From assembly GCA_964363475.1 (NCBI GenBank), contig CAYIII010000002.1, forward strand, positions 6,661-70,660: DNA of 64,000 nucleotides, given 5' to 3'. This document shows, in pieces, positions 3,890-30,894 of this stretch; positions within the stretch are counted from its first letter, which is position 1; every line of letters begins with the position of its first letter. The stretch is from an uncultured Candidatus Saccharibacteria bacterium (GTDB taxonomy: Bacteria > Patescibacteriota > Minisyncoccia > UBA6257 > UBA11618). Under the pieces are notes generated by a model that made no database searches, was not told the DNA's origin, and saw only the letters and a program-made list of their open reading frames with translations. The position numbers and the translations under genes were made by a program.

Positions 3890-3899
3890 AGGATTTTAC

Positions 3900-3955
3900 G
3901 AGTTATCCCCAGACCAACTAGTTTTCCCCATACTTTTCCACAATTCCCCACTAAC
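3900..3955 (-). promoter_or_regulatory. Putative MraZ operator: ~10-bp-phased direct repeats of TGGGGA (minus-strand reading) upstream of mraZ
   Basis: Plus strand carries TCCCCA-type repeats at 3906-3911, 3925-3930, 3945-3950 and a degenerate TTCCAC at 3936-3941, i.e. GTGGGGA/ATGGGGA/CTGGGGA on the mraZ strand. MraZ is known to bind TGGGN direct repeats in its own promoter. Confidence 0.35.
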
Positions 3956-4066
3956 CGCTACTTTTAATAATAAACTAGCCGCTTTGGTGGTCAATAGGAC
4001 GGTCTTGTGGATAACTCGAAAATTTGTTATTTTCTTGAAAGCTCACTACTTTGAAAGGGAGAATAT

Positions 4067-4471: not shown

Positions 4472-4585
4472 TCTCCTACGCTTTGTGTTTCACAAAGCTT
4501 CGGAAGAGCAAGATTTCTTTGCACAAAGATACTTGCCCATCCGAAGCCCTATGAAATAGGGCGAAGGAGGGAGCTATGCGCGCTC

Positions 4586-4611
4586 TCCCGCTATAAGCGG
4601 GATTTTTTTAT
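4586..4611 (+). terminator. Hairpin plus T-run (intrinsic-terminator-like) at the end of a multi-hairpin region
   Basis: CTCCCGCTATAAGCGGG followed by ATTTTTTTATT. Confidence 0.4.
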
Positions 4612-4979
4612 TGTAATTCCACTGTGGCGCCGGCCGCTTCTAATTTTTTCTTTAATTCTTCCGCCTCTTCTTTCTTTAGTCCTTCTTTAACTACTTTCGG
4701 CGCTCCGTCAACGATGGTTTTAGATTCTTGCAGTCCAAGACCAGTAGCTTCTTTAACGGCTTTAATGACTTGTATTTTTTGCGTTCCGCTTTCCTTTAAT
4801 AAGACACTCCAGGCGGTTTTTTCTTCAGCTATCGCTTCACCGCTACCGGCTCCCCCGGCTACAGCTACCGGCACGGAAGCAGAGATGTTAAATTTCTCTT
4901 CCATAGCTTTTACCAATTCAGATAATTCTAAAGCGTTCATTTGTTCTATTTTAGACAATAAATCTTGAAATTTTTCCAT
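4608..4979 (-). CDS. rplL: 50S ribosomal protein L7/L12
   Basis: 123 aa; N-terminal dimerisation helix, Ala/Gly hinge ([11 protein letters not shown]), C-terminal domain with KVVKEGL...[20 protein letters not shown]. Confidence 0.9.
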
Positions 4980-4984
4980 ATTTT

Positions 4985-5500
4985 TTAATTTGATTTTTGC
5001 GTTTTTCCGACCTCATTTAACGCAATCATTATTTTTTTAACAGGCATGGTAAGCATAATCGCTATCTGCGTCAGCAATATTTCCCTGGGCGGTAATTTCG
5101 CTATTTTTACAAATTCTTCGGAAGTTATATTTTTATTTTCCGGAAGATTAAAGCCGCCTAATATTTTTAGGTCCTTTTTTGTTTTAGCCAGTTCTTTAAC
5201 GAATTTGTACAAATTACCGGCCGCAGAAAATATATCTTTAGATAACAAGATGGCGCCGACTTGGCTTTTAAATTGAGTCGGGTCGGAGTCCTTTTCTGAT
5301 TTTCGCAAGGCAATCTTCAGTAATCTTTTTTTAATCACCTTAAACTTCCCGCCAACTTCTTTCAGCATCAAGCGCAAATTTCTTAATTCGGAAGTTGAAA
5401 TGCCGGTAAAATCCGCAAATAAAATGGTCTTGCTATTTTTGATTTCAGCAACACCTTCCTCAACCTGTTTAATTTTCTGTTGTTTTGTAAGCATATTCAC
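4985..5500 (-). CDS. rplJ: 50S ribosomal protein L10
   Basis: 171 aa; immediately upstream of rplL; typical L10 length and composition. Confidence 0.85.
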
Positions 5501-5672
5501 TTATCGTAACCCCTTGACGCGACTCTGGGTTCTTTTTCTTTTGAAAAAGAAAAACGACCTTTCGGGCCGTAGACAAAAAAGCGTCCTCGGCGGGTTGCTT
5601 CGGTAAGCTCGGAGGAGCTTATCACCCGCTGTCTACGGAATAATGCCATTATAAAAAAATAAAGCTCAAATG
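5501..5672 (-). promoter_or_regulatory. Structured 5' leader of rplJ-rplL (candidate L10 autoregulatory leader)
   Basis: A 170-nt non-coding region directly upstream of rplJ with a perfect 9-bp long-range inverted repeat CCGTAGACA / TGTCTACGG (about 5566-5638) enclosing GC-rich sub-hairpins (GCGGGT...ACCCGC). L10 leaders are structured rRNA mimics in many bacteria. Confidence 0.3.
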
Positions 5673-6608
5673 TCAATCCTGCGCTTGTAGGATTTGTTTG
5701 AGCTTTAAGCAATTTTGTAATTTTCTTTTAGCTTTAAATTCTATTTGTCTAATCCTTTCTCTTGATAGTTCTAATACATCCCCGATGTCCCTTAAGGTGC
5801 AGATTCTATCTTTTGATTGAAGCTTTCCCCATTTCTTATAAAAATAATTTTCCTCCGAATTTGTTCCCGCTTTTTTATCCAGTTTTTTAAATATGGATTG
5901 GTGATAGTTAAGACCGAATCTGTTCAGAATAACAAAGGCCTCTCCGGGACTTAAATTGCCAATAATTACATCCACTACATTTTGAGTTGCAATCGTATTG
6001 CAATTTGCGTCCCCTTCGGTATCCCAATCACGGTCGTTCCAATATTCGTCTATTGAACAACAACTTTTAAACGTTAATTCTATATTTTCTACGGACTTTA
6101 CAGTTTCTCCCATTTCTTTTGCAATAGAAGCCGTATCCGGCTTAGATTGGTTTTTTGTTTCATGCTGAATCTTCCTCACGGCCGCCAAATATTTTATTTG
6201 TTTATTAATTGCGTTAAAGGGTATGCGAATAGTTCTCCCGTACTTTTTTATGTAGTCCAATATTTCTCTATAAATCCAATGTATGGCATAAGTAGAAAGT
6301 TTATTAGCCCCCTTGCCATATCTAAACCTGTCTATTCCTGTTATCAAACCAATGCTTCCTGCGCTAATTAAATCTTCAAGATGAAGAATTGGATTATAGG
6401 AATCGTAATATTTTTTTGCAATACTTATAACAAAAAAAAGATTGCGTTCTATTAATACGCGTCTGGCTTCCGCCGCTTCTCTTTGAACTATTTTTGATTG
6501 CGATTTGCGTCCCCTTTCCATTTTCATTAACAATTCCCTTTCTTCTTTCGGAGTTAATCTGTTTCCGCATTTTTTAATGTCTTCCAGATATTCTCCCAAG
6601 AGATTCAT
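5673..6608 (-). CDS. Sigma-70 family RNA polymerase sigma factor (RpoD-like, no region 1.1)
   Basis: 311 aa; region 2 (FVISIAKKY...STYAIHWIYREI) and region 4.2 HTH (TLRDIGDVLELSRERIRQIEFKAKRKL). Has a Cys-containing insert between regions 3 and 4. Confidence 0.8.
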   Translation of the reverse strand: MNLLGEYLEDIKKCGNRLTPKEERELLMKMERGRKSQSKIVQREAAEARRVLIERNLFFVISIAKKYYDSYNPILHLEDLISAGSIGLITGIDRFRYGKGANKLSTYAIHWIYREILDYIKKYGRTIRIPFNAINKQIKYLAAVRKIQHETKNQSKPDTASIAKEMGETVKSVENIELTFKSCCSIDEYWNDRDWDTEGDANCNTIATQNVVDVIIGNLSPGEAFVILNRFGLNYHQSIFKKLDKKAGTNSEENYFYKKWGKLQSKDRICTLRDIGDVLELSRERIRQIEFKAKRKLQNCLKLKQILQAQD

Positions 6609-6704
6609 TGAGCCTCCTTTCCGGCTAATAAGCAGTTGTCAAAAAACCATTAATATATAATCACATTAACCATTTTTTGTAAATACTAGTTTAACTTCCC
6701 CTAA

Positions 6705-7075
6705 TACAACAAAACGGGTCCTGACAGGAGCATTGTCTCGAAAACACGCTATCAAATTTCCCAGCGAGAAATTTGCGCTCGCTCTCGGCCTCGCTCGCCC
6801 AGCGCTATTTTAGACAAGTTAATTATAAAATAGCACTGGGCACCTGCCCGCTCGGCCTGCGAGACGGTTTTCTCAACAATGTTCCTGTCACCCGTTTGCC
6901 AATATTAAAGAAAGAACCCGTTCCGTGAGGCAATTGGCGGAGGCCGCGCCGGCAGGGTCTTTTTGTTACACTTATCTAAAAACAAAAAGCGGCGAGCCGA
7001 GCCGATAGGCGGTTCCGCCTCGCAGGGGCGGAAACCGCCGGTGCCTTTAGGAACGGGTTCTTTCTTGAGAAAACT
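6705..7075. ncRNA. Candidate structured RNA or palindromic element: GC-rich, nested inverted repeats in a 480-bp intergenic gap. Identity unknown.
   Basis: Imperfect IR arms 6712-6745 / 6867-6897 enclosing IR 6800-6840 (CAGCGCTATTTTA / TAAAATAGCACTG). Second IR 6907-6924 / 7049-7065 (AAAGAAAGAACCCGTTCC / GGAACGGGTTCTTTCTT) enclosing GGCGGTTCCGCC..GGCGGAAACCGCC. GC content is far above the flanking DNA. No RNase P, tmRNA or SRP consensus motifs were found by eye. Confidence 0.25.
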
Positions 7076-7092
7076 ATTTTTCTACAGCTTGT

Positions 7093-7716
7093 CTAAAATC
7101 TTTTCCTCCATTTATTAATCTTATCGTGATTACCGGAAAGCAGGATTTTCGGCGCTTTCCAATTATTAAATATTTCGGGCCTGGTATAAACGGGATATGA
7201 ACCTTTGACTGCTTCTAACGATTCTTTTTTGCCCAATACTTTTGGAATAAAACGAGATACCGCGTCAACAACTATCATTGCCGGTATTTCTCCCCCAAAC
7301 AAAACAAAATCACCTATGGATATTTCTTCATCGGCTATATATCTAGCAACTCTTTCATCAACCCCCTCATAGCGTCCGCAAATTAAAATTAACTGGTCGT
7401 ATTTTGACAATCCTTGAGCAGTTTTTTGATTAAATGTTTTTCCGCGAGTTGAAAACAAAATCACCCTGCTTTTATTCTTTTTATTTTTGTATTTTATATT
7501 TTGCACCGCCCTATAAACAGGAGCAACTTTCAGCACCATTCCCGGACCGCCTCCATAAGGAGAATCGTCAATTTTTTTATGCTTATCTTCGGCAAAGTCC
7601 CTTAAGTTGTGGATGTTAATTTTGATTAGTTTTTTTTCTTGGGCGCGTTTAAGAATGGACTCATTAAAATAGCTTGAAAATATTTCTGGGAAAATTGTGA
7701 TTATATTGAATTTCAT
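7093..7716 (-). CDS. trmD: tRNA (guanine37-N1)-methyltransferase TrmD
   Basis: 207 aa; MKFNIITIFPEIF... SPOUT fold; synteny rpsP-KH-trmD. Confidence 0.9.
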   Translation of the reverse strand: MKFNIITIFPEIFSSYFNESILKRAQEKKLIKINIHNLRDFAEDKHKKIDDSPYGGGPGMVLKVAPVYRAVQNIKYKNKKNKSRVILFSTRGKTFNQKTAQGLSKYDQLILICGRYEGVDERVARYIADEEISIGDFVLFGGEIPAMIVVDAVSRFIPKVLGKKESLEAVKGSYPVYTRPEIFNNWKAPKILLSGNHDKINKWRKRF

Positions 7717-7787: not shown

Positions 7788-8081
7788 TTAGAAGCTTGAT
7801 TCTGGATTGCGCTCAGAACCGTGAGTAGAACCTTCCGGTTCGTTAATTTTTAGGTTAACGTGAGCATTATGCTTTATTCCAACAATTCTCAAAAGAGAAC
7901 GGATGGACCTTGCGGTAGAACCTTGTCGGCCAATTACTTGGCCCATATCCTTTGGGCTCACTGACAATGAAAGCAAAACTCCTCGCTCATCTATTGCTCT
8001 GTCCACTTTAACTTCTTCTGGATGGTCAACGATGGACTTAACCAAAAAATCTAAAAATTCTTTATCAGTATTTGTATTCAT
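7788..8081 (-). CDS. KH-domain RNA-binding protein (UPF0109/YlqC-like)
   Basis: 97 aa; GxxG KH motif (IGRQGSTARSIRSLL); located between rpsP and trmD as in many bacteria. Confidence 0.7.
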   Translation of the reverse strand: MNTNTDKEFLDFLVKSIVDHPEEVKVDRAIDERGVLLSLSVSPKDMGQVIGRQGSTARSIRSLLRIVGIKHNAHVNLKINEPEGSTHGSERNPESSF

Positions 8082-8170: not shown

Positions 8171-8455
8171 TTAACCTTTCTCAACTTTCTTCGGCTGTCC
8201 GTGTACCGGTCGTTTTTTGTCTTCTATAATACTTGCCGTAATAAGAAGATTATGGACGGTGTCTGTTTTTTGCGCTCCGTTTTTCAGCCAATATAAAACC
8301 CTTTCCCCTTTAAATTCCATTTTATCTGTTTTTGGATTATACCAGCCCAGGTATTCCAGTTGTTTGCCGTTTAATTTAGTGCGTTTTTCTCCAATCACCA
8401 AACGGAAGTGAGCTTGGTGTTTTTTGCCAATTCTTTGCAGTTTTAGAACTAACAT
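8171..8455 (-). CDS. rpsP: 30S ribosomal protein S16
   Basis: 94 aa; MLVLKLQRIGKKHQAHFRLVI... canonical S16 N-terminus. Confidence 0.9.
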   Translation of the reverse strand: MLVLKLQRIGKKHQAHFRLVIGEKRTKLNGKQLEYLGWYNPKTDKMEFKGERVLYWLKNGAQKTDTVHNLLITASIIEDKKRPVHGQPKKVEKG

Positions 8456-8478: not shown

Positions 8479-8925
8479 TTATTCAAAAGTGTAAAGTCCC
8501 GGAGTGCAACCTGGCGGTGGCTTAGAAGAACAACTCTTAGATTTAGACGAAATTTGCATGTCTATAATCTCAAAGTTAGTCACTTGGCCACCATTACAAG
8601 TCATTCCTATGGTCAATGCTAAATCAGTGAAAGTGCTTGAGTTGTCCCTGCAAGAACACCTAACTCCCTCCCATATGCAAGCGGCTCCGGTTCCAGTTGG
8701 CCAACTTAACCGAGTGATGCCACCTAAAGAAATAGCATTAGCTATAAAATTATTCACCGCCAAATCTCCGCTTTTAACTTGATAACCCGGACCAACATTA
8801 ACTGGCGCCGGAACATTGCCATCTGGCGGAGGAAGCGTCGGTTGCTGAAAAACGGCAAGAGCCAAATAATTCATTGCAAAAATAGATACGACAGCGATAA
8901 GAACCACTAAAAGCATATTATTCAT
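8479..8925 (-). CDS. Hypothetical secreted or membrane-anchored Cys-rich protein
   Basis: 148 aa; N-terminal hydrophobic helix, then a Pro-rich stretch and 8 Cys (CIWEGVRCSC, CNGG, CSSKPPPGC). No recognisable family. Confidence 0.4.
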   Translation of the reverse strand: MNNMLLVVLIAVVSIFAMNYLALAVFQQPTLPPPDGNVPAPVNVGPGYQVKSGDLAVNNFIANAISLGGITRLSWPTGTGAACIWEGVRCSCRDNSSTFTDLALTIGMTCNGGQVTNFEIIDMQISSKSKSCSSKPPPGCTPGLYTFE

Positions 8926-8975: not shown

Positions 8976-9662
8976 TTAATAAGGATGTCTTCTTAGGGCT
9001 TTTTTTGCGGCTTCCACCTCCGCTTCCTGTTTGGAATAACCCTCTCCCGAAGCCAAAAATTCGTCCTCCGAATAAACTCCCACTTTAAATAATTTTTGAT
9101 GTTCCGGCCCGCTTTCTTCCAGGTTTTTATAAGTCGGCGTAATTTTTTTCTCGCTTTGCATTTTTTCTTGCAGTAAGCTTTTGGCGTCTTTATAAGAGCC
9201 GTTGCGCAAAACCTCTTCAACTTTGATTAGAATAAATTTATTAACAAAATTTTTAATTTGAGAATAATCCGAGTCCAAATAAATCGCGCCAATGAGCGCT
9301 TCCATCGCGTTGGCGATAATAACATCTCGGGCCTTTCCCGTGTCTTTTGCCTCGCCTTTTGACAGTAAAATTTCTTTGTCCAGTATTATCTCTTTTCCTA
9401 TTTGAGCAAGAATTTGATAATTAACCAGAGCCGCCCTCAAGGTGGTCAGCTTGCCCTCGTCGTCATTTGGGAAGCGGTTAAATAATTCTTCCGTAACGGC
9501 TAATTCCAAAACAGCATCCCCTAAAAATTCCAATCTCTCGTTATGAGGAAATTTCCAGTCAGTATTTTCATTTAAATAAGAGCGATGCGTCATCGCCTCC
9601 TTCAAAAAAGATTGGTCTTTAAAATTATATTCAATTGTTTTTTCTAAATTAGATATGGACAC
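8976..9662 (-). CDS. rnc: Ribonuclease III
   Basis: 228 aa; RNase III signature ERLEFLGDAVLELAV plus a C-terminal dsRBD. Confidence 0.9.
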   Translation of the reverse strand: MSISNLEKTIEYNFKDQSFLKEAMTHRSYLNENTDWKFPHNERLEFLGDAVLELAVTEELFNRFPNDDEGKLTTLRAALVNYQILAQIGKEIILDKEILLSKGEAKDTGKARDVIIANAMEALIGAIYLDSDYSQIKNFVNKFILIKVEEVLRNGSYKDAKSLLQEKMQSEKKITPTYKNLEESGPEHQKLFKVGVYSEDEFLASGEGYSKQEAEVEAAKKALRRHPY

Positions 9663-10098: not shown

Positions 10099-10150
10099 GT
10101 TTTATAAATTTTCAATTATCAATTTTTAATTTTCAATTATTGATATGGTC

Positions 10151-10306
10151 TTACTTGTACTTTCCGCATTGTTTGCATGAACGATGTGGCAATACCGGTC
10201 CTCTGCAATTAGAACAGGCAAACAGGCCTATTTTTTTTAGAGCCAAGTGAGAGCGACGACGCCCCACTTTGCCCTTGCTATGATGTTTGACCGGTACTCC
10301 TCCCAT
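10151..10306 (-). CDS. rpmF: 50S ribosomal protein L32 (absent from the supplied ORF track because it is short)
   Basis: Minus-strand translation MGGVPVKHHSKGKVGRRRSHLALKKIGLFACSNCRGPVLPHRSCKQCGKYK (51 aa). Basic N-terminus and CxxC...CxxC zinc ribbon typical of L32. Confidence 0.7.
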   Translation of the reverse strand: MGGVPVKHHSKGKVGRRRSHLALKKIGLFACSNCRGPVLPHRSCKQCGKYK

Positions 10307-10408
10307 ATACTTTGTATTAAAACAATACTAACAATGATTGCTGAATTTGTCAAAATATGAGAGAAGTTTTTAATTAAATTTTTTTCTAGTTATACTTAAT
10401 TAAAAATA

Positions 10409-30293: not shown

Positions 30294-30894
30294 AAAAATA
30301 AAATCTTTAATTTTTTATACGGTTTCATTTTTAATGATAATTTTAATCTCTATATTTTTTTCGTCTTTAGTTACTTTAAATGTCATTTATTCTTGCTCTA
30401 ATCAAATAAGAAACGGTTATTTATCGGAATTTTTATGTGGTGATGTTGGGAAGACAGTAGAGGAAATTAAAGAAGATGAGTTTGTTTGGATAAAGCCAGA
30501 AGATATTTTACGAGCGTATTCTAATGATATTTTAGAGATAAATGAAAAAAGCAAAGCCGACAAATTAATTGATGGAGACATTAACACCGGCGCTTATCCC
30601 GGAAACAAGCAATTTGATTACATAGTTGAATTCATAGACGAGTACGAAATAAGTAGAATAGAGCTTATTTGGGGCGGCAGTGGAACGAGCAGACAACATA
30701 TCCAAGAATGGTCTTTAGAGTCCAAGTCCGGTTTATTGGGAGAATGGCAAGTTGTGGCTGGCGAGAAAGAATCTCTGGGCACGGAAAAAACGGTTTTAGA
30801 TATAAATATAAAAGCGGACTCTATAAAAATTCGTGCGAGTTCTCAAGATAATTGGATTGGAATTTTAGAGGTAAAAATCTTAAGAAAATCTTAG
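30280..30894 (+). CDS. Membrane-anchored protein with discoidin (F5/8 type C) carbohydrate-binding-like domain
   Basis: 204 aa; N-terminal TM; LIDGDINTGAYPGNKQFDYIVEFIDEYEISRIELIWGG...WQVVAG resembles the discoidin-domain consensus (xIDGdxxTxW...vDLg...i.xv.l.W). Confidence 0.45.
   Translation: MKKVRKIKSLIFYTVSFLMIILISIFFSSLVTLNVIYSCSNQIRNGYLSEFLCGDVGKTVEEIKEDEFVWIKPEDILRAYSNDILEINEKSKADKLIDGDINTGAYPGNKQFDYIVEFIDEYEISRIELIWGGSGTSRQHIQEWSLESKSGLLGEWQVVAGEKESLGTEKTVLDINIKADSIKIRASSQDNWIGILEVKILRKS

Follow-up and report, generated by a model that had tools for sequence, protein, structure and literature searches.

Between trmD and a gene for a sigma-70-family factor, a Patescibacteria/CPR genome from Hainich groundwater carries a GC-rich element (6705-7075) built of nested inverted repeats, and this locus raises the question of whether the element is a structured RNA, a MITE-like palindromic insertion or an elaborate terminator or attenuator. 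The DNA analyzed (hereafter the window) is 64,000 nt long, with a GC content of 0.34 and a coding density of ~92%; the locus is also present on the ENA contig Hain_H51_01um_R3_1487. A similarity search with TrmD returned many close relatives, which were named as Patescibacteria or Ca. Harrisonbacteria. The genes surrounding the element are all located on the minus strand, and the features of the locus are as follows.

8976-9662: rnc, encoding RNase III, 2 kb upstream of the element
8171-8455, minus strand: rpsP
7788-8081, minus strand: khpA, encoding a KhpA-type KH protein
7093-7716, minus strand: trmD (PF01746, E 2.4e-51), the gene upstream of the element on the transcribed strand
6609-7092: non-coding gap of 484 nt between trmD and the sigma gene
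6609-6704, minus strand: AT-rich spacer from the D2 domain of the element (see below) to the start codon of the sigma gene, with the U-rich tract UUUUGUUGUAUU first and the Shine-Dalgarno sequence GGAAAGGAGG last
5673-6608, minus strand: fast-evolving sigma-70-family gene (regions 2 and 4), downstream of the element
4985-5500, minus strand: rplJ
4608-4979, minus strand: rplL

In the gene order, rplL is followed by a tRNA-Val gene, which was detected with Rfam. The first-pass annotation of this DNA had described the gap as non-coding, which was borne out; no homologue was found for any reading frame within 6609-7092. It had also held that genes elsewhere in the first 20 kb are only a few nucleotides apart. 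This was too strong, given that gaps of 172-310 nt occur at 2300-2565, 3890-4066, 5501-5672 and 10099-10408, but among the gaps of these 20 kb, 6609-7092 alone combines length with GC richness. The reported jump in GC content was likewise seen: the value for 6705-7075 is 0.52, and the richest 300 nt of the entire 64 kb lie at 6761-7060.

An independent 19-kb assembly (ENA contig, L002) was 100% identical to the window over the whole element. Moreover, both edges of the element, joined to trmD and to the sigma gene, respectively, were present in the Logan contigs L003 and L131. These contigs end inside the element, at 6974 and 6770, and the stretch 6771-6973 is covered by the two larger assemblies only. 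Because the element is identical in a second assembly and both of its edges are found in Logan contigs, an assembly artefact is unlikely, and the element is very probably real DNA.

The folding of the element was analyzed over 403 nt (6690-7092) on both strands. The predicted energy was -180.4 kcal/mol on the minus strand (z -8.0 against dinucleotide shuffles) and -174.2 kcal/mol on the plus strand (z -8.6), and no dinucleotide shuffle matched the native folding energy. The fold strength of the element is far beyond chance. The plus-strand fold predicted for the whole element has 127 pairs, of which 123 are Watson-Crick and 4 are G.U; of the 132 pairs predicted for the minus strand, 121 are Watson-Crick and 11 are G.U. 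Two domains, D2 and D1, make up the element. Each is predicted to fold into a three-way junction, in which a long helix closes the domain and two hairpins branch off inside it: the long hairpin A, AT-rich at its tip and with a loop of 13 nt, and the shorter hairpin B.

6905-7075, plus strand: domain D1, with the closing helix 6908-6932/7042-7066, the tip of hairpin A at 6959-6989 and hairpin B at 7009-7040
6936-7006, plus strand: D1 core, homologous to the D2 core on the opposite strand
6708-6902, minus strand: domain D2, with the closing helix 6712-6745/6867-6900, the tip of hairpin A' at 6797-6841 and hairpin B' at ~6742-6784
6784-6863, minus strand: D2 core, which matches the D1 core in inverted orientation (inverted repeats I4, I6 and I10)

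The two long-range stems and the nested sub-hairpins that the first-pass annotation had listed were all found. The closing stem of D1 (6908-6932/7042-7066) is 25 nt long and 88% complementary, with 17 bp perfect, and that of D2 (6722-6745/6867-6890) is 24 nt long and 83% complementary, extended by the 7-bp stem AAACGGG/CCCGTTT at 6712-6718/6892-6898; AACGGGT/ACCCGTT underlies both closing helices. A sub-hairpin of 16 nt (94%) is located at 6797-6812/6826-6841, and the A' tip as a whole (6797-6841) is predicted to pair over 17 bp on the minus strand, one of them G.U, around a 13-nt loop. The sub-hairpin at 6959-6967/6981-6989 has 9 perfect base pairs and also a 13-nt loop. The others are GGCGGTTCCGCC/GGCGGAAACCGCC at 7009-7040 and AGCGAG/CTCGCT at 6763-6783.

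The two levels of symmetry described at first therefore stand, but a third, outer level had been missed, in that each domain is an inverted copy of the other. D1 folds slightly better on the plus strand (-90.7 vs -81.4 kcal/mol on the minus strand), and D2 folds better on the minus strand (-90.6 vs -79.5 kcal/mol on the plus strand), the one that also carries the flanking genes. In the predicted folds, D2 contains 9 G.U pairs on the minus strand but 1 on the plus strand; for D1, the counts are 3 (plus) and 1 (minus). Each unit thus appears to favour its own 'sense' strand slightly, in numbers that are small and dependent on the fold. D1 on the plus strand and D2 on the minus strand share the order of their parts, as inverted, diverged copies of a unit of ~170-190 nt. 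Three collinear blocks are shared between them (D1/D2: CGGAGGCCGCGCCGGCAGG/CGCAGGCCGAGCGGGCAGG, ACTTATCTAAA/ACTTGTCTAAA and GGCGAGCCGAGCCGA/GGCGAGCGAGGCCGA). The shared core can also be written as the blocks AGGCCGNGCNGGCAGG ... ACTTRTCTAAA ... GGCGAGC. Global alignment gave a z of 3.7 for D1(+) with D2(-) vs -0.8 for D1(+) with D2(+), and the two domains were each other's best non-self nhmmer match in the window (E ~0.15 in a search space of 128 kb). RNAalifold of D1(+) and D2(-) returned only a weak consensus, owing to stems of unequal length, and is given no weight here.

As read from its sequence, the whole element is an imperfect palindrome centred near 6903, with arms that are themselves palindromes, and this arrangement explains the inverted repeats that run across the domains (I3, I4, I6, I9-I11 and I17). 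GC-rich mini-palindromes recur within it (GGCGG-N3-CCGCC, GCGAG/CTCGC and GGCCGAG/CTCGGCC), and the arms of the hairpins are often self-complementary, e.g., GGCGG-UUU-CCGCC. The inverted duplication of a hairpin unit, the mini-palindromes and the similar folding of the two strands point to a palindrome at the DNA level more than to an evolved RNA.

The tips of the inner hairpins carry an AT-rich motif, TTTTAGAYAAG, which has three exact matches in the 64 kb. All three are located at the element or the trmD stop codon, within 300 bp, two of them direct and one inverted. When one mismatch was allowed, 11 occurrences were observed in the window vs 8.2 expected, which is no higher than chance. The three exact copies are as follows.

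7070-7100, minus strand: copy a, an AT-rich segment of ~27 nt (ATTTTAGACAAGCTGTAGAAAAATAG), the 11-mer of which (7088-7098) overlaps the trmD stop codon (7093-7095)
6971-6981, minus strand: copy b (TTTTAGATAAG), in the 13-nt loop of the D1 inner hairpin
6808-6818, plus strand: copy c, at the tip of the D2 inner hairpin, with 5 nt in the stem and 6 nt in the loop

The similarity between the copies reaches ~27 nt (ATTTTAGAYAAG..TGTA..AAAAATAG), and a T-run/A-run hairpin with a 13-nt loop is possible at all three. TTTTAG(AC) and TAGACAA were found just 3' of trmD in the relatives L084, L088, L089 and L140; copy a is probably native, since TAGACAA follows trmD in these relatives. Either the hairpin tips may have been copied from the local sequence, by growth of the palindrome in place, or the element may have recombined in via microhomology at the motif. 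On the minus strand, the D2 loop is predicted to pair with the D1 loop over 7 bp, including one G.U pair, at -6.7 kcal/mol, a value equalled by 25 of 2000 shuffles; the same pairing on the plus strand is weaker (-2.9 kcal/mol). The D2 loop would also be able to pair with the trmD stop region in a minus-strand RNA. These predicted loop-loop and loop-stop pairings are a lead, not evidence of function.

To place the element among related genomes, the locus was compared with those of ten distinct relatives, the TrmD proteins of which are 73-88% identical to that of the window, and with 80 more distant loci from metagenomes. The cluster rpsP-khpA-trmD is common to the ten relatives, and the element was present at the syntenic site in none of them. 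In the closest relative (L084, TrmD 88% identical), trmD leads straight to the rplJ promoter, so that 57 nt stand against 1410 nt in the window (7092-5683, the element plus the sigma gene). The order trmD directly followed by rplJ was found in four relatives (L084, L089, L135 and L138), and L086 has two unrelated genes in this place. A sigma-like gene follows trmD in L088, L090, L139 and L140, after spacers of 55, 45, 62 and 42 nt, respectively. Over the alignable part, these sigma-like proteins are only 28-33% identical to that of the window, and the sigma gene is therefore evolving fast. A search for the sigma factor in genome contigs gave a single match (31% identical). A phage origin of the sigma gene was considered and set aside, as the search for viral relatives found none.

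From this comparison, the sigma gene appears to recur at the trmD/rplJ junction without being a fixed part of it, and the junction itself appears to be a hotspot for the gain and loss of accessory genes, the fast-evolving sigma gene included. The GC-rich element of ~430 nt appears to be confined to the species of the window, among the relatives examined. Conservation in related genomes had been named at first as the mark of a structured RNA gene, and by that measure the absence of the element from all ten relatives that share the cluster counts against such a gene.

Known RNA families were searched for with covariance models. At the gathering thresholds, Rfam cmscan of the whole window reported only the tRNA-Val. 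At E<=10, the region 6550-7150 (601 nt) gave five chance-level matches (E 0.46-9.5), to plant-virus pseudoknots, a lncRNA, a miRNA and an sRNA, and at this cutoff RNase P, tmRNA, SRP, 6S, riboswitch, intron and large ornate RNA were all absent from it. ARAGORN found no tRNA or tmRNA at the element. The earlier judgement that the element is not RNase P, tmRNA, SRP or 6S RNA was thus upheld. Several individual candidates were tried and rejected. For RNase P, ACCCGUU/AACGGGU is superficially P4-like (CR-I/CR-V), but it closes a domain of 120 nt and not the whole RNA. Some tRNA group I introns of Patescibacteria are missed by the model RF00028 (PMC13011429). A tRNA with a divergent group I intron was rejected because the tRNA halves are lacking and the fold consists of two palindromic domains, with no group I core; neither RF00028 nor a tRNA was matched at E<=10 in 6550-7150, and no T-arm-like GTTCRA motif was found at either end of the element. 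Many more distant relatives carry the 16S rRNA immediately after trmD, and a leader or processing stem left over from an rRNA operon was therefore considered. It was dismissed, given that the nearer relatives have the order trmD-(sigma)-rplJ and nhmmer detected no similarity to such leaders. Nor is the element a duplicate of the L10 leader: the genuine leader is located at 5540-5656, and its likeness to D1 is at chance level (E = 10).

The signals expected of an independent transcript were examined in the gap. A scan of 6609-7092 on both strands called no consensus sigma-70-type promoter. The same scan recovered a perfect (12/12) TTGACA-17-TATAAT promoter for rplJ at 5676-5648, and canonical promoters are therefore detectable in this organism. 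The scan for intrinsic terminators (a compact GC-rich hairpin with a loop of 3-8 nt, followed by a U-tract) found none in 6609-7092. The U-rich tract UUUUGUUGUAUU abuts the closing helix of D2; together they are unlike a compact terminator, since the helix closes a branched interior of 120 nt. The Shine-Dalgarno sequence and start codon of the sigma gene are located ~95 nt past the last helix and are unsequestered in the predicted fold.

Multiple copies had been put forward at first as the sign of a MITE, and none were found in the sequences searched. No second copy was detected in the 64-kb window (blastn and nhmmer), in 138 related and viral loci (~770 kb; blastn/nhmmer, partly with --max) or in the phage and plasmid collections (blastn). 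Three pattern scans of viral contigs also revealed no copy; in one of them, the 39 matches were single 15-mers, which chance alone would produce. To catch spurious ORF calls on homologues, a concatenated six-frame translation was searched against 5.8 billion proteins and gave one match with E = 0.064, which is not meaningful. No target-site duplication (TA or other) was visible at the borders of D1 or D2: D1 is flanked by ATATTA on one side and GAGAAA on the other, and the flanks of D2 just continue the palindrome. Among the 64 ORFs of the window, there was no transposase, integrase/recombinase, RAYT (Y1) or reverse transcriptase. Of the three possibilities raised at the outset, what survives, in broad terms, is a lineage-specific palindromic element in a spacer that is presumably transcribed.

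The best explanation, to which a probability of roughly 0.45 is assigned, is that the element arose as a recent palindromic insertion, non-coding and specific to this species, with passive effects in cis, and is not a conserved RNA gene. The insertion site would be the spacer between trmD and the sigma gene, which is 42-62 nt long in related genomes, and the insertion would consist of two diverged hairpin units of ~170-190 nt placed head to head, D2 (6708-6902) and D1 (6905-7075). Since no promoter is predicted in the gap and the sigma gene of relatives comes right after trmD, the element is probably co-transcribed on the minus strand within the rpsP-khpA-trmD-sigma message. In that message, the closing helices (25 and ~31 paired positions) would be candidate substrates of RNase III, the gene for which lies 2 kb upstream, and D2 with UUUUGUUGUAUU may act as a barrier or a partial terminator. 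REP/BIME and Correia elements separate the downstream cistron by cleavage or partial termination and cap the 3' end of the upstream mRNA. By analogy with them, the combined effect would be to uncouple the expression of the sigma gene from the upstream operon and to protect the 3' end of trmD. The element may have originated by transposition, or by growth of a palindrome in situ from a native hairpin at the trmD stop codon.

The restriction to one species, the inverted duplication, the mini-palindromes, the near-pure Watson-Crick pairing, the equal folding of the two strands and the lack of a promoter or terminator of its own all count for an insertion. On the other side, 430 nt without any use should be lost from so streamlined a genome (92% coding), and the high GC content and the G.U excess of D2 (9 vs 1), which are the expected product of selection on an RNA fold, count against it. 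Mobility, in particular, is counted against by the lack of a second copy in the searched sequence, of a target duplication and of a mobility enzyme among the 64 ORFs. An RNA under selection is favoured by the GC richness of the element, by its persistence in a streamlined genome, by the bias of D2 towards G.U pairs on the transcribed strand and by the complementary loops.

Such an RNA might be a dedicated cis-regulatory leader of the sigma mRNA. The minus-strand fold would then sense a signal, be it temperature, a ligand, a protein or a small RNA, and so set the level of read-through or translation of the alternative sigma factor, much like the long structured leaders of rpoS and rpoH. The element is positioned directly upstream of the sigma gene on the transcribed strand. 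D2 favours that strand in both energy and G.U pairs and has the U-rich tract next to it, alternative pairings between the D1 and D2 cores exist (I4, I6 and I11), and the loop-loop pairing is the stronger on this strand (-6.7 kcal/mol, 25 of 2000 shuffles, vs -2.9 kcal/mol). However, four relatives carry an orthologous sigma gene behind a spacer of 42-62 nt without any such leader, Rfam returned no riboswitch or leader family, and D1 lies in the antisense orientation of the unit. The free Shine-Dalgarno sequence and start codon argue against a classical translational switch. A sigma leader is accordingly regarded as unlikely.

A new class of stand-alone structured non-coding RNA, in the size range of RNase P or the large 'ornate' RNAs and composed of two three-way-junction modules in kissing-loop contact, is still less likely. 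At ~370 nt, the element is the most GC-rich island of an AT-rich window and has an extremely stable fold; its architecture is branched and is not that of a single hairpin, and its two 13-nt loops are complementary. Patescibacteria RNAs too divergent for standard models are known, for example group I introns (PMC13011429). Against this, no homologue was found in the ten syntenic relatives, the ~770 kb of loci, the phages, plasmids and viral contigs or the search of 5.8 billion proteins, and no promoter or compact terminator was called. The equal folding of both strands, the almost purely Watson-Crick helices and the repeated mini-palindromes are also unfavourable, and with the modules inverted each transcript would contain only one 'sense' module.

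A role of the element as DNA, be it a cruciform-prone site or a set of sites for a TTTTAGAYAAG-binding protein (a recombination/attachment site or an operator), is considered improbable. The three exact copies of the motif within 300 bp, the sole ones in 64 kb, would suit such a site, as would the related TAGACAA conserved just after trmD in several relatives, the equal symmetry on both strands and the location at a junction that is a hotspot for the gain and loss of accessory genes. The motif is, however, short and AT-rich, with a one-mismatch count at chance (11 vs 8.2), nothing links it to a known binding protein, and the window contains no recombinase or integrase.

An equally improbable model is that the minus-strand transcript of 6705-7075 is a new, lineage-confined RNA, the modules of which would dock via their 13-nt loops, with one loop also pairing with the trmD stop region, and which would gate a fast-evolving alternative sigma factor. 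Compatible with this model are the surplus of G.U pairs that D2 shows on the transcribed strand and the loop complementarity, which is better there; against it, no homologue is available for covariation. Finally, an assembly artefact, that is, a chimeric or fold-back join at the inverted repeats, is very improbable: the coverage is low (~5x according to the ENA contig name) and the Logan contigs break within the element at 6974 and 6770, but the window of at least 64 kb and the separate 19-kb ENA contig agree at 100% over it, its GC-rich edges are joined to trmD and the sigma gene in the Logan contigs, and the inverted copies are diverged and not perfect, unlike those of fold-back chimeras.

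If the palindromic insertion is the true explanation, the element is one more lineage-specific case, notable for its occurrence in an ultra-small, streamlined CPR genome and within a conserved cluster of ribosomal and tRNA-modification genes. Repeats and junk DNA are rare in streamlined CPR genomes. As a single copy without relatives, the element cannot support a general claim at present, and its function cannot be generalized. If copies were found elsewhere in the genome or the community, the element would represent a MITE-like family, the first to be described in this group, and a discrete RNA in transcript data, if seen, would raise its importance.

The element can be compared with four kinds of known systems. 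Like the long structured 5' leaders of rpoS and rpoH, it is located directly upstream of a sigma gene and allows alternative pairings. It differs from them in that the ribosome-binding site is outside the fold and the orthologous sigma genes of relatives have no leader. With the large RNAs of Rfam (RNase P, tmRNA, SRP, 6S, OLE, GOLLD, ROOL, raiA, HEARO and group I introns), it shares a length of ~370 nt, GC enrichment, a multi-branched fold and a possible loop-loop contact. In contrast to these RNAs, it matches no covariance model above chance and is not conserved in relatives. A conserved structured RNA is recognized by a structure that is present and covarying in relatives, and the element was absent from the syntenic site in all ten.

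REP/BIME elements and REPINs of Proteobacteria are likewise extragenic, GC-rich relative to their surroundings and arranged as inverted pairs of imperfect palindromes between co-transcribed genes. In such positions, REP-type elements attenuate read-through or stabilise the mRNA upstream of them. With a length of 20-40 nt, REP units occur in tens to hundreds of copies and have a cognate RAYT transposase. The element differs in its branched units of ~170-190 nt, its one known locus and the lack of a RAYT gene among the 64 ORFs of the window.

Correia elements of Neisseria, ERIC/IRU, the Rickettsia palindromic elements and the pneumococcal RUP/BOX elements share with it units of 100-200 bp and long terminal inverted repeats, which in D1 include 17 perfect base pairs. 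These MITE-like repeats are also located next to or between genes and are co-transcribed, as is presumed for the element. Long hairpins of Correia elements are cleaved by RNase III. The element differs from these repeats in its three-way junctions and in that no target-site duplication, further copies or similarity to phages or plasmids were found. Of the hallmarks of a MITE, a target-site duplication is lacking, with no direct repeat at the borders, but terminal inverted repeats around a small non-coding body are present (17 bp perfect in the 25-nt arm of D1, and 24-nt arms plus 7 bp in D2). Fitting no named family, the element is closest in kind to the bacterial extragenic palindromic and MITE-like elements.

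The junction between trmD (the tRNA methyltransferase gene) and rplJ was analyzed by comparing window positions 5673-7092 with the trmD loci of nine relatives (L084, L086, L088, L089, L090, L135, L138, L139 and L140). In four of these relatives (L084, L089, L135 and L138), the junction was without any gene. A sigma-70-like gene occupied it in the window and in four others (L088, L090, L139 and L140), and a Band_7 gene pair was found there in the remaining one (L086). The sigma-70-like genes were very fast-evolving, with 28-33% identity to that of the window, where the TrmD proteins were 76-78% identical. By these comparisons, the trmD/rplJ junction is a hotspot at which this Patescibacteria clade has gained and lost genes.

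No homologue of the 311-aa sigma protein of the window (5673-6608) was found at more than 35% identity among 5.8 billion proteins. The query itself was not returned by the homology search because, in the 90%-identity protein collection, it was grouped under an unrelated 57-aa representative (P0243), which is a database quirk and not biology. The features identified around the junction, together with two other long gaps in the window, were as follows.

5540-5656, minus strand: ribosomal protein L10 leader upstream of rplJ
5676-5648, minus strand: perfect promoter, TTGACA-17-TATAAT, ahead of the L10 leader
6808-6818, plus strand: exact TTTTAGAYAAG
6971-6981, minus strand: exact TTTTAGAYAAG
7088-7098, minus strand: exact TTTTAGAYAAG
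8479-8925, minus strand: gene for a 148-aa protein, between rnc and rpsP
30294-30820: gap of 527 nt, free of ORFs of at least 70 aa
46997-47834: gap of 838 nt, likewise free of such ORFs

The L10 leader scored 39.3 bits (E 2.6e-05), just below the Rfam gathering score of 44, and was therefore missed by the default Rfam scan. The -35 hexamer of its promoter overlapped the stop codon of the sigma gene, and the leader/promoter region showed 79% identity with L084, the closest relative. No exact TTTTAGAYAAG other than these three was present in the 64 kb. Each marked a copy of an AT-rich hairpin segment (∼27 nt), and one of the copies overlapped the trmD stop codon; a related sequence, TAGACAA, was found again right after trmD in relatives.

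The 148-aa protein had no Pfam match. An equally long gene was called at the matching position in L084, and a 155-aa gene in L086, so that this protein may be a clade-specific member of an otherwise housekeeping cluster. The two long gaps were AT-rich (GC 0.32-0.33), gave no Rfam match at gathering thresholds, and may contain short genes. Separately, ∼35 glycosyltransferases, sugar epimerases/dehydratases and methyltransferases were observed at 26148-63840 (plus strand), nearly 38 kb almost entirely on one strand; this region is a cell-surface polysaccharide cluster, very large for such a genome type.

Among more distant Patescibacteria, with TrmD identities of 50-70%, many had the 16S rRNA gene after trmD in the same orientation, beginning 300-700 nt downstream, as seen in the trmD loci L005, L014, L016, L021, L023, L025, L031, L039, L040, L047, L048, L050 and L072. 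The 16S match of L023 was in two pieces, at 4560-5478 and at 6232-6669; this split points to a large insertion or an intron.
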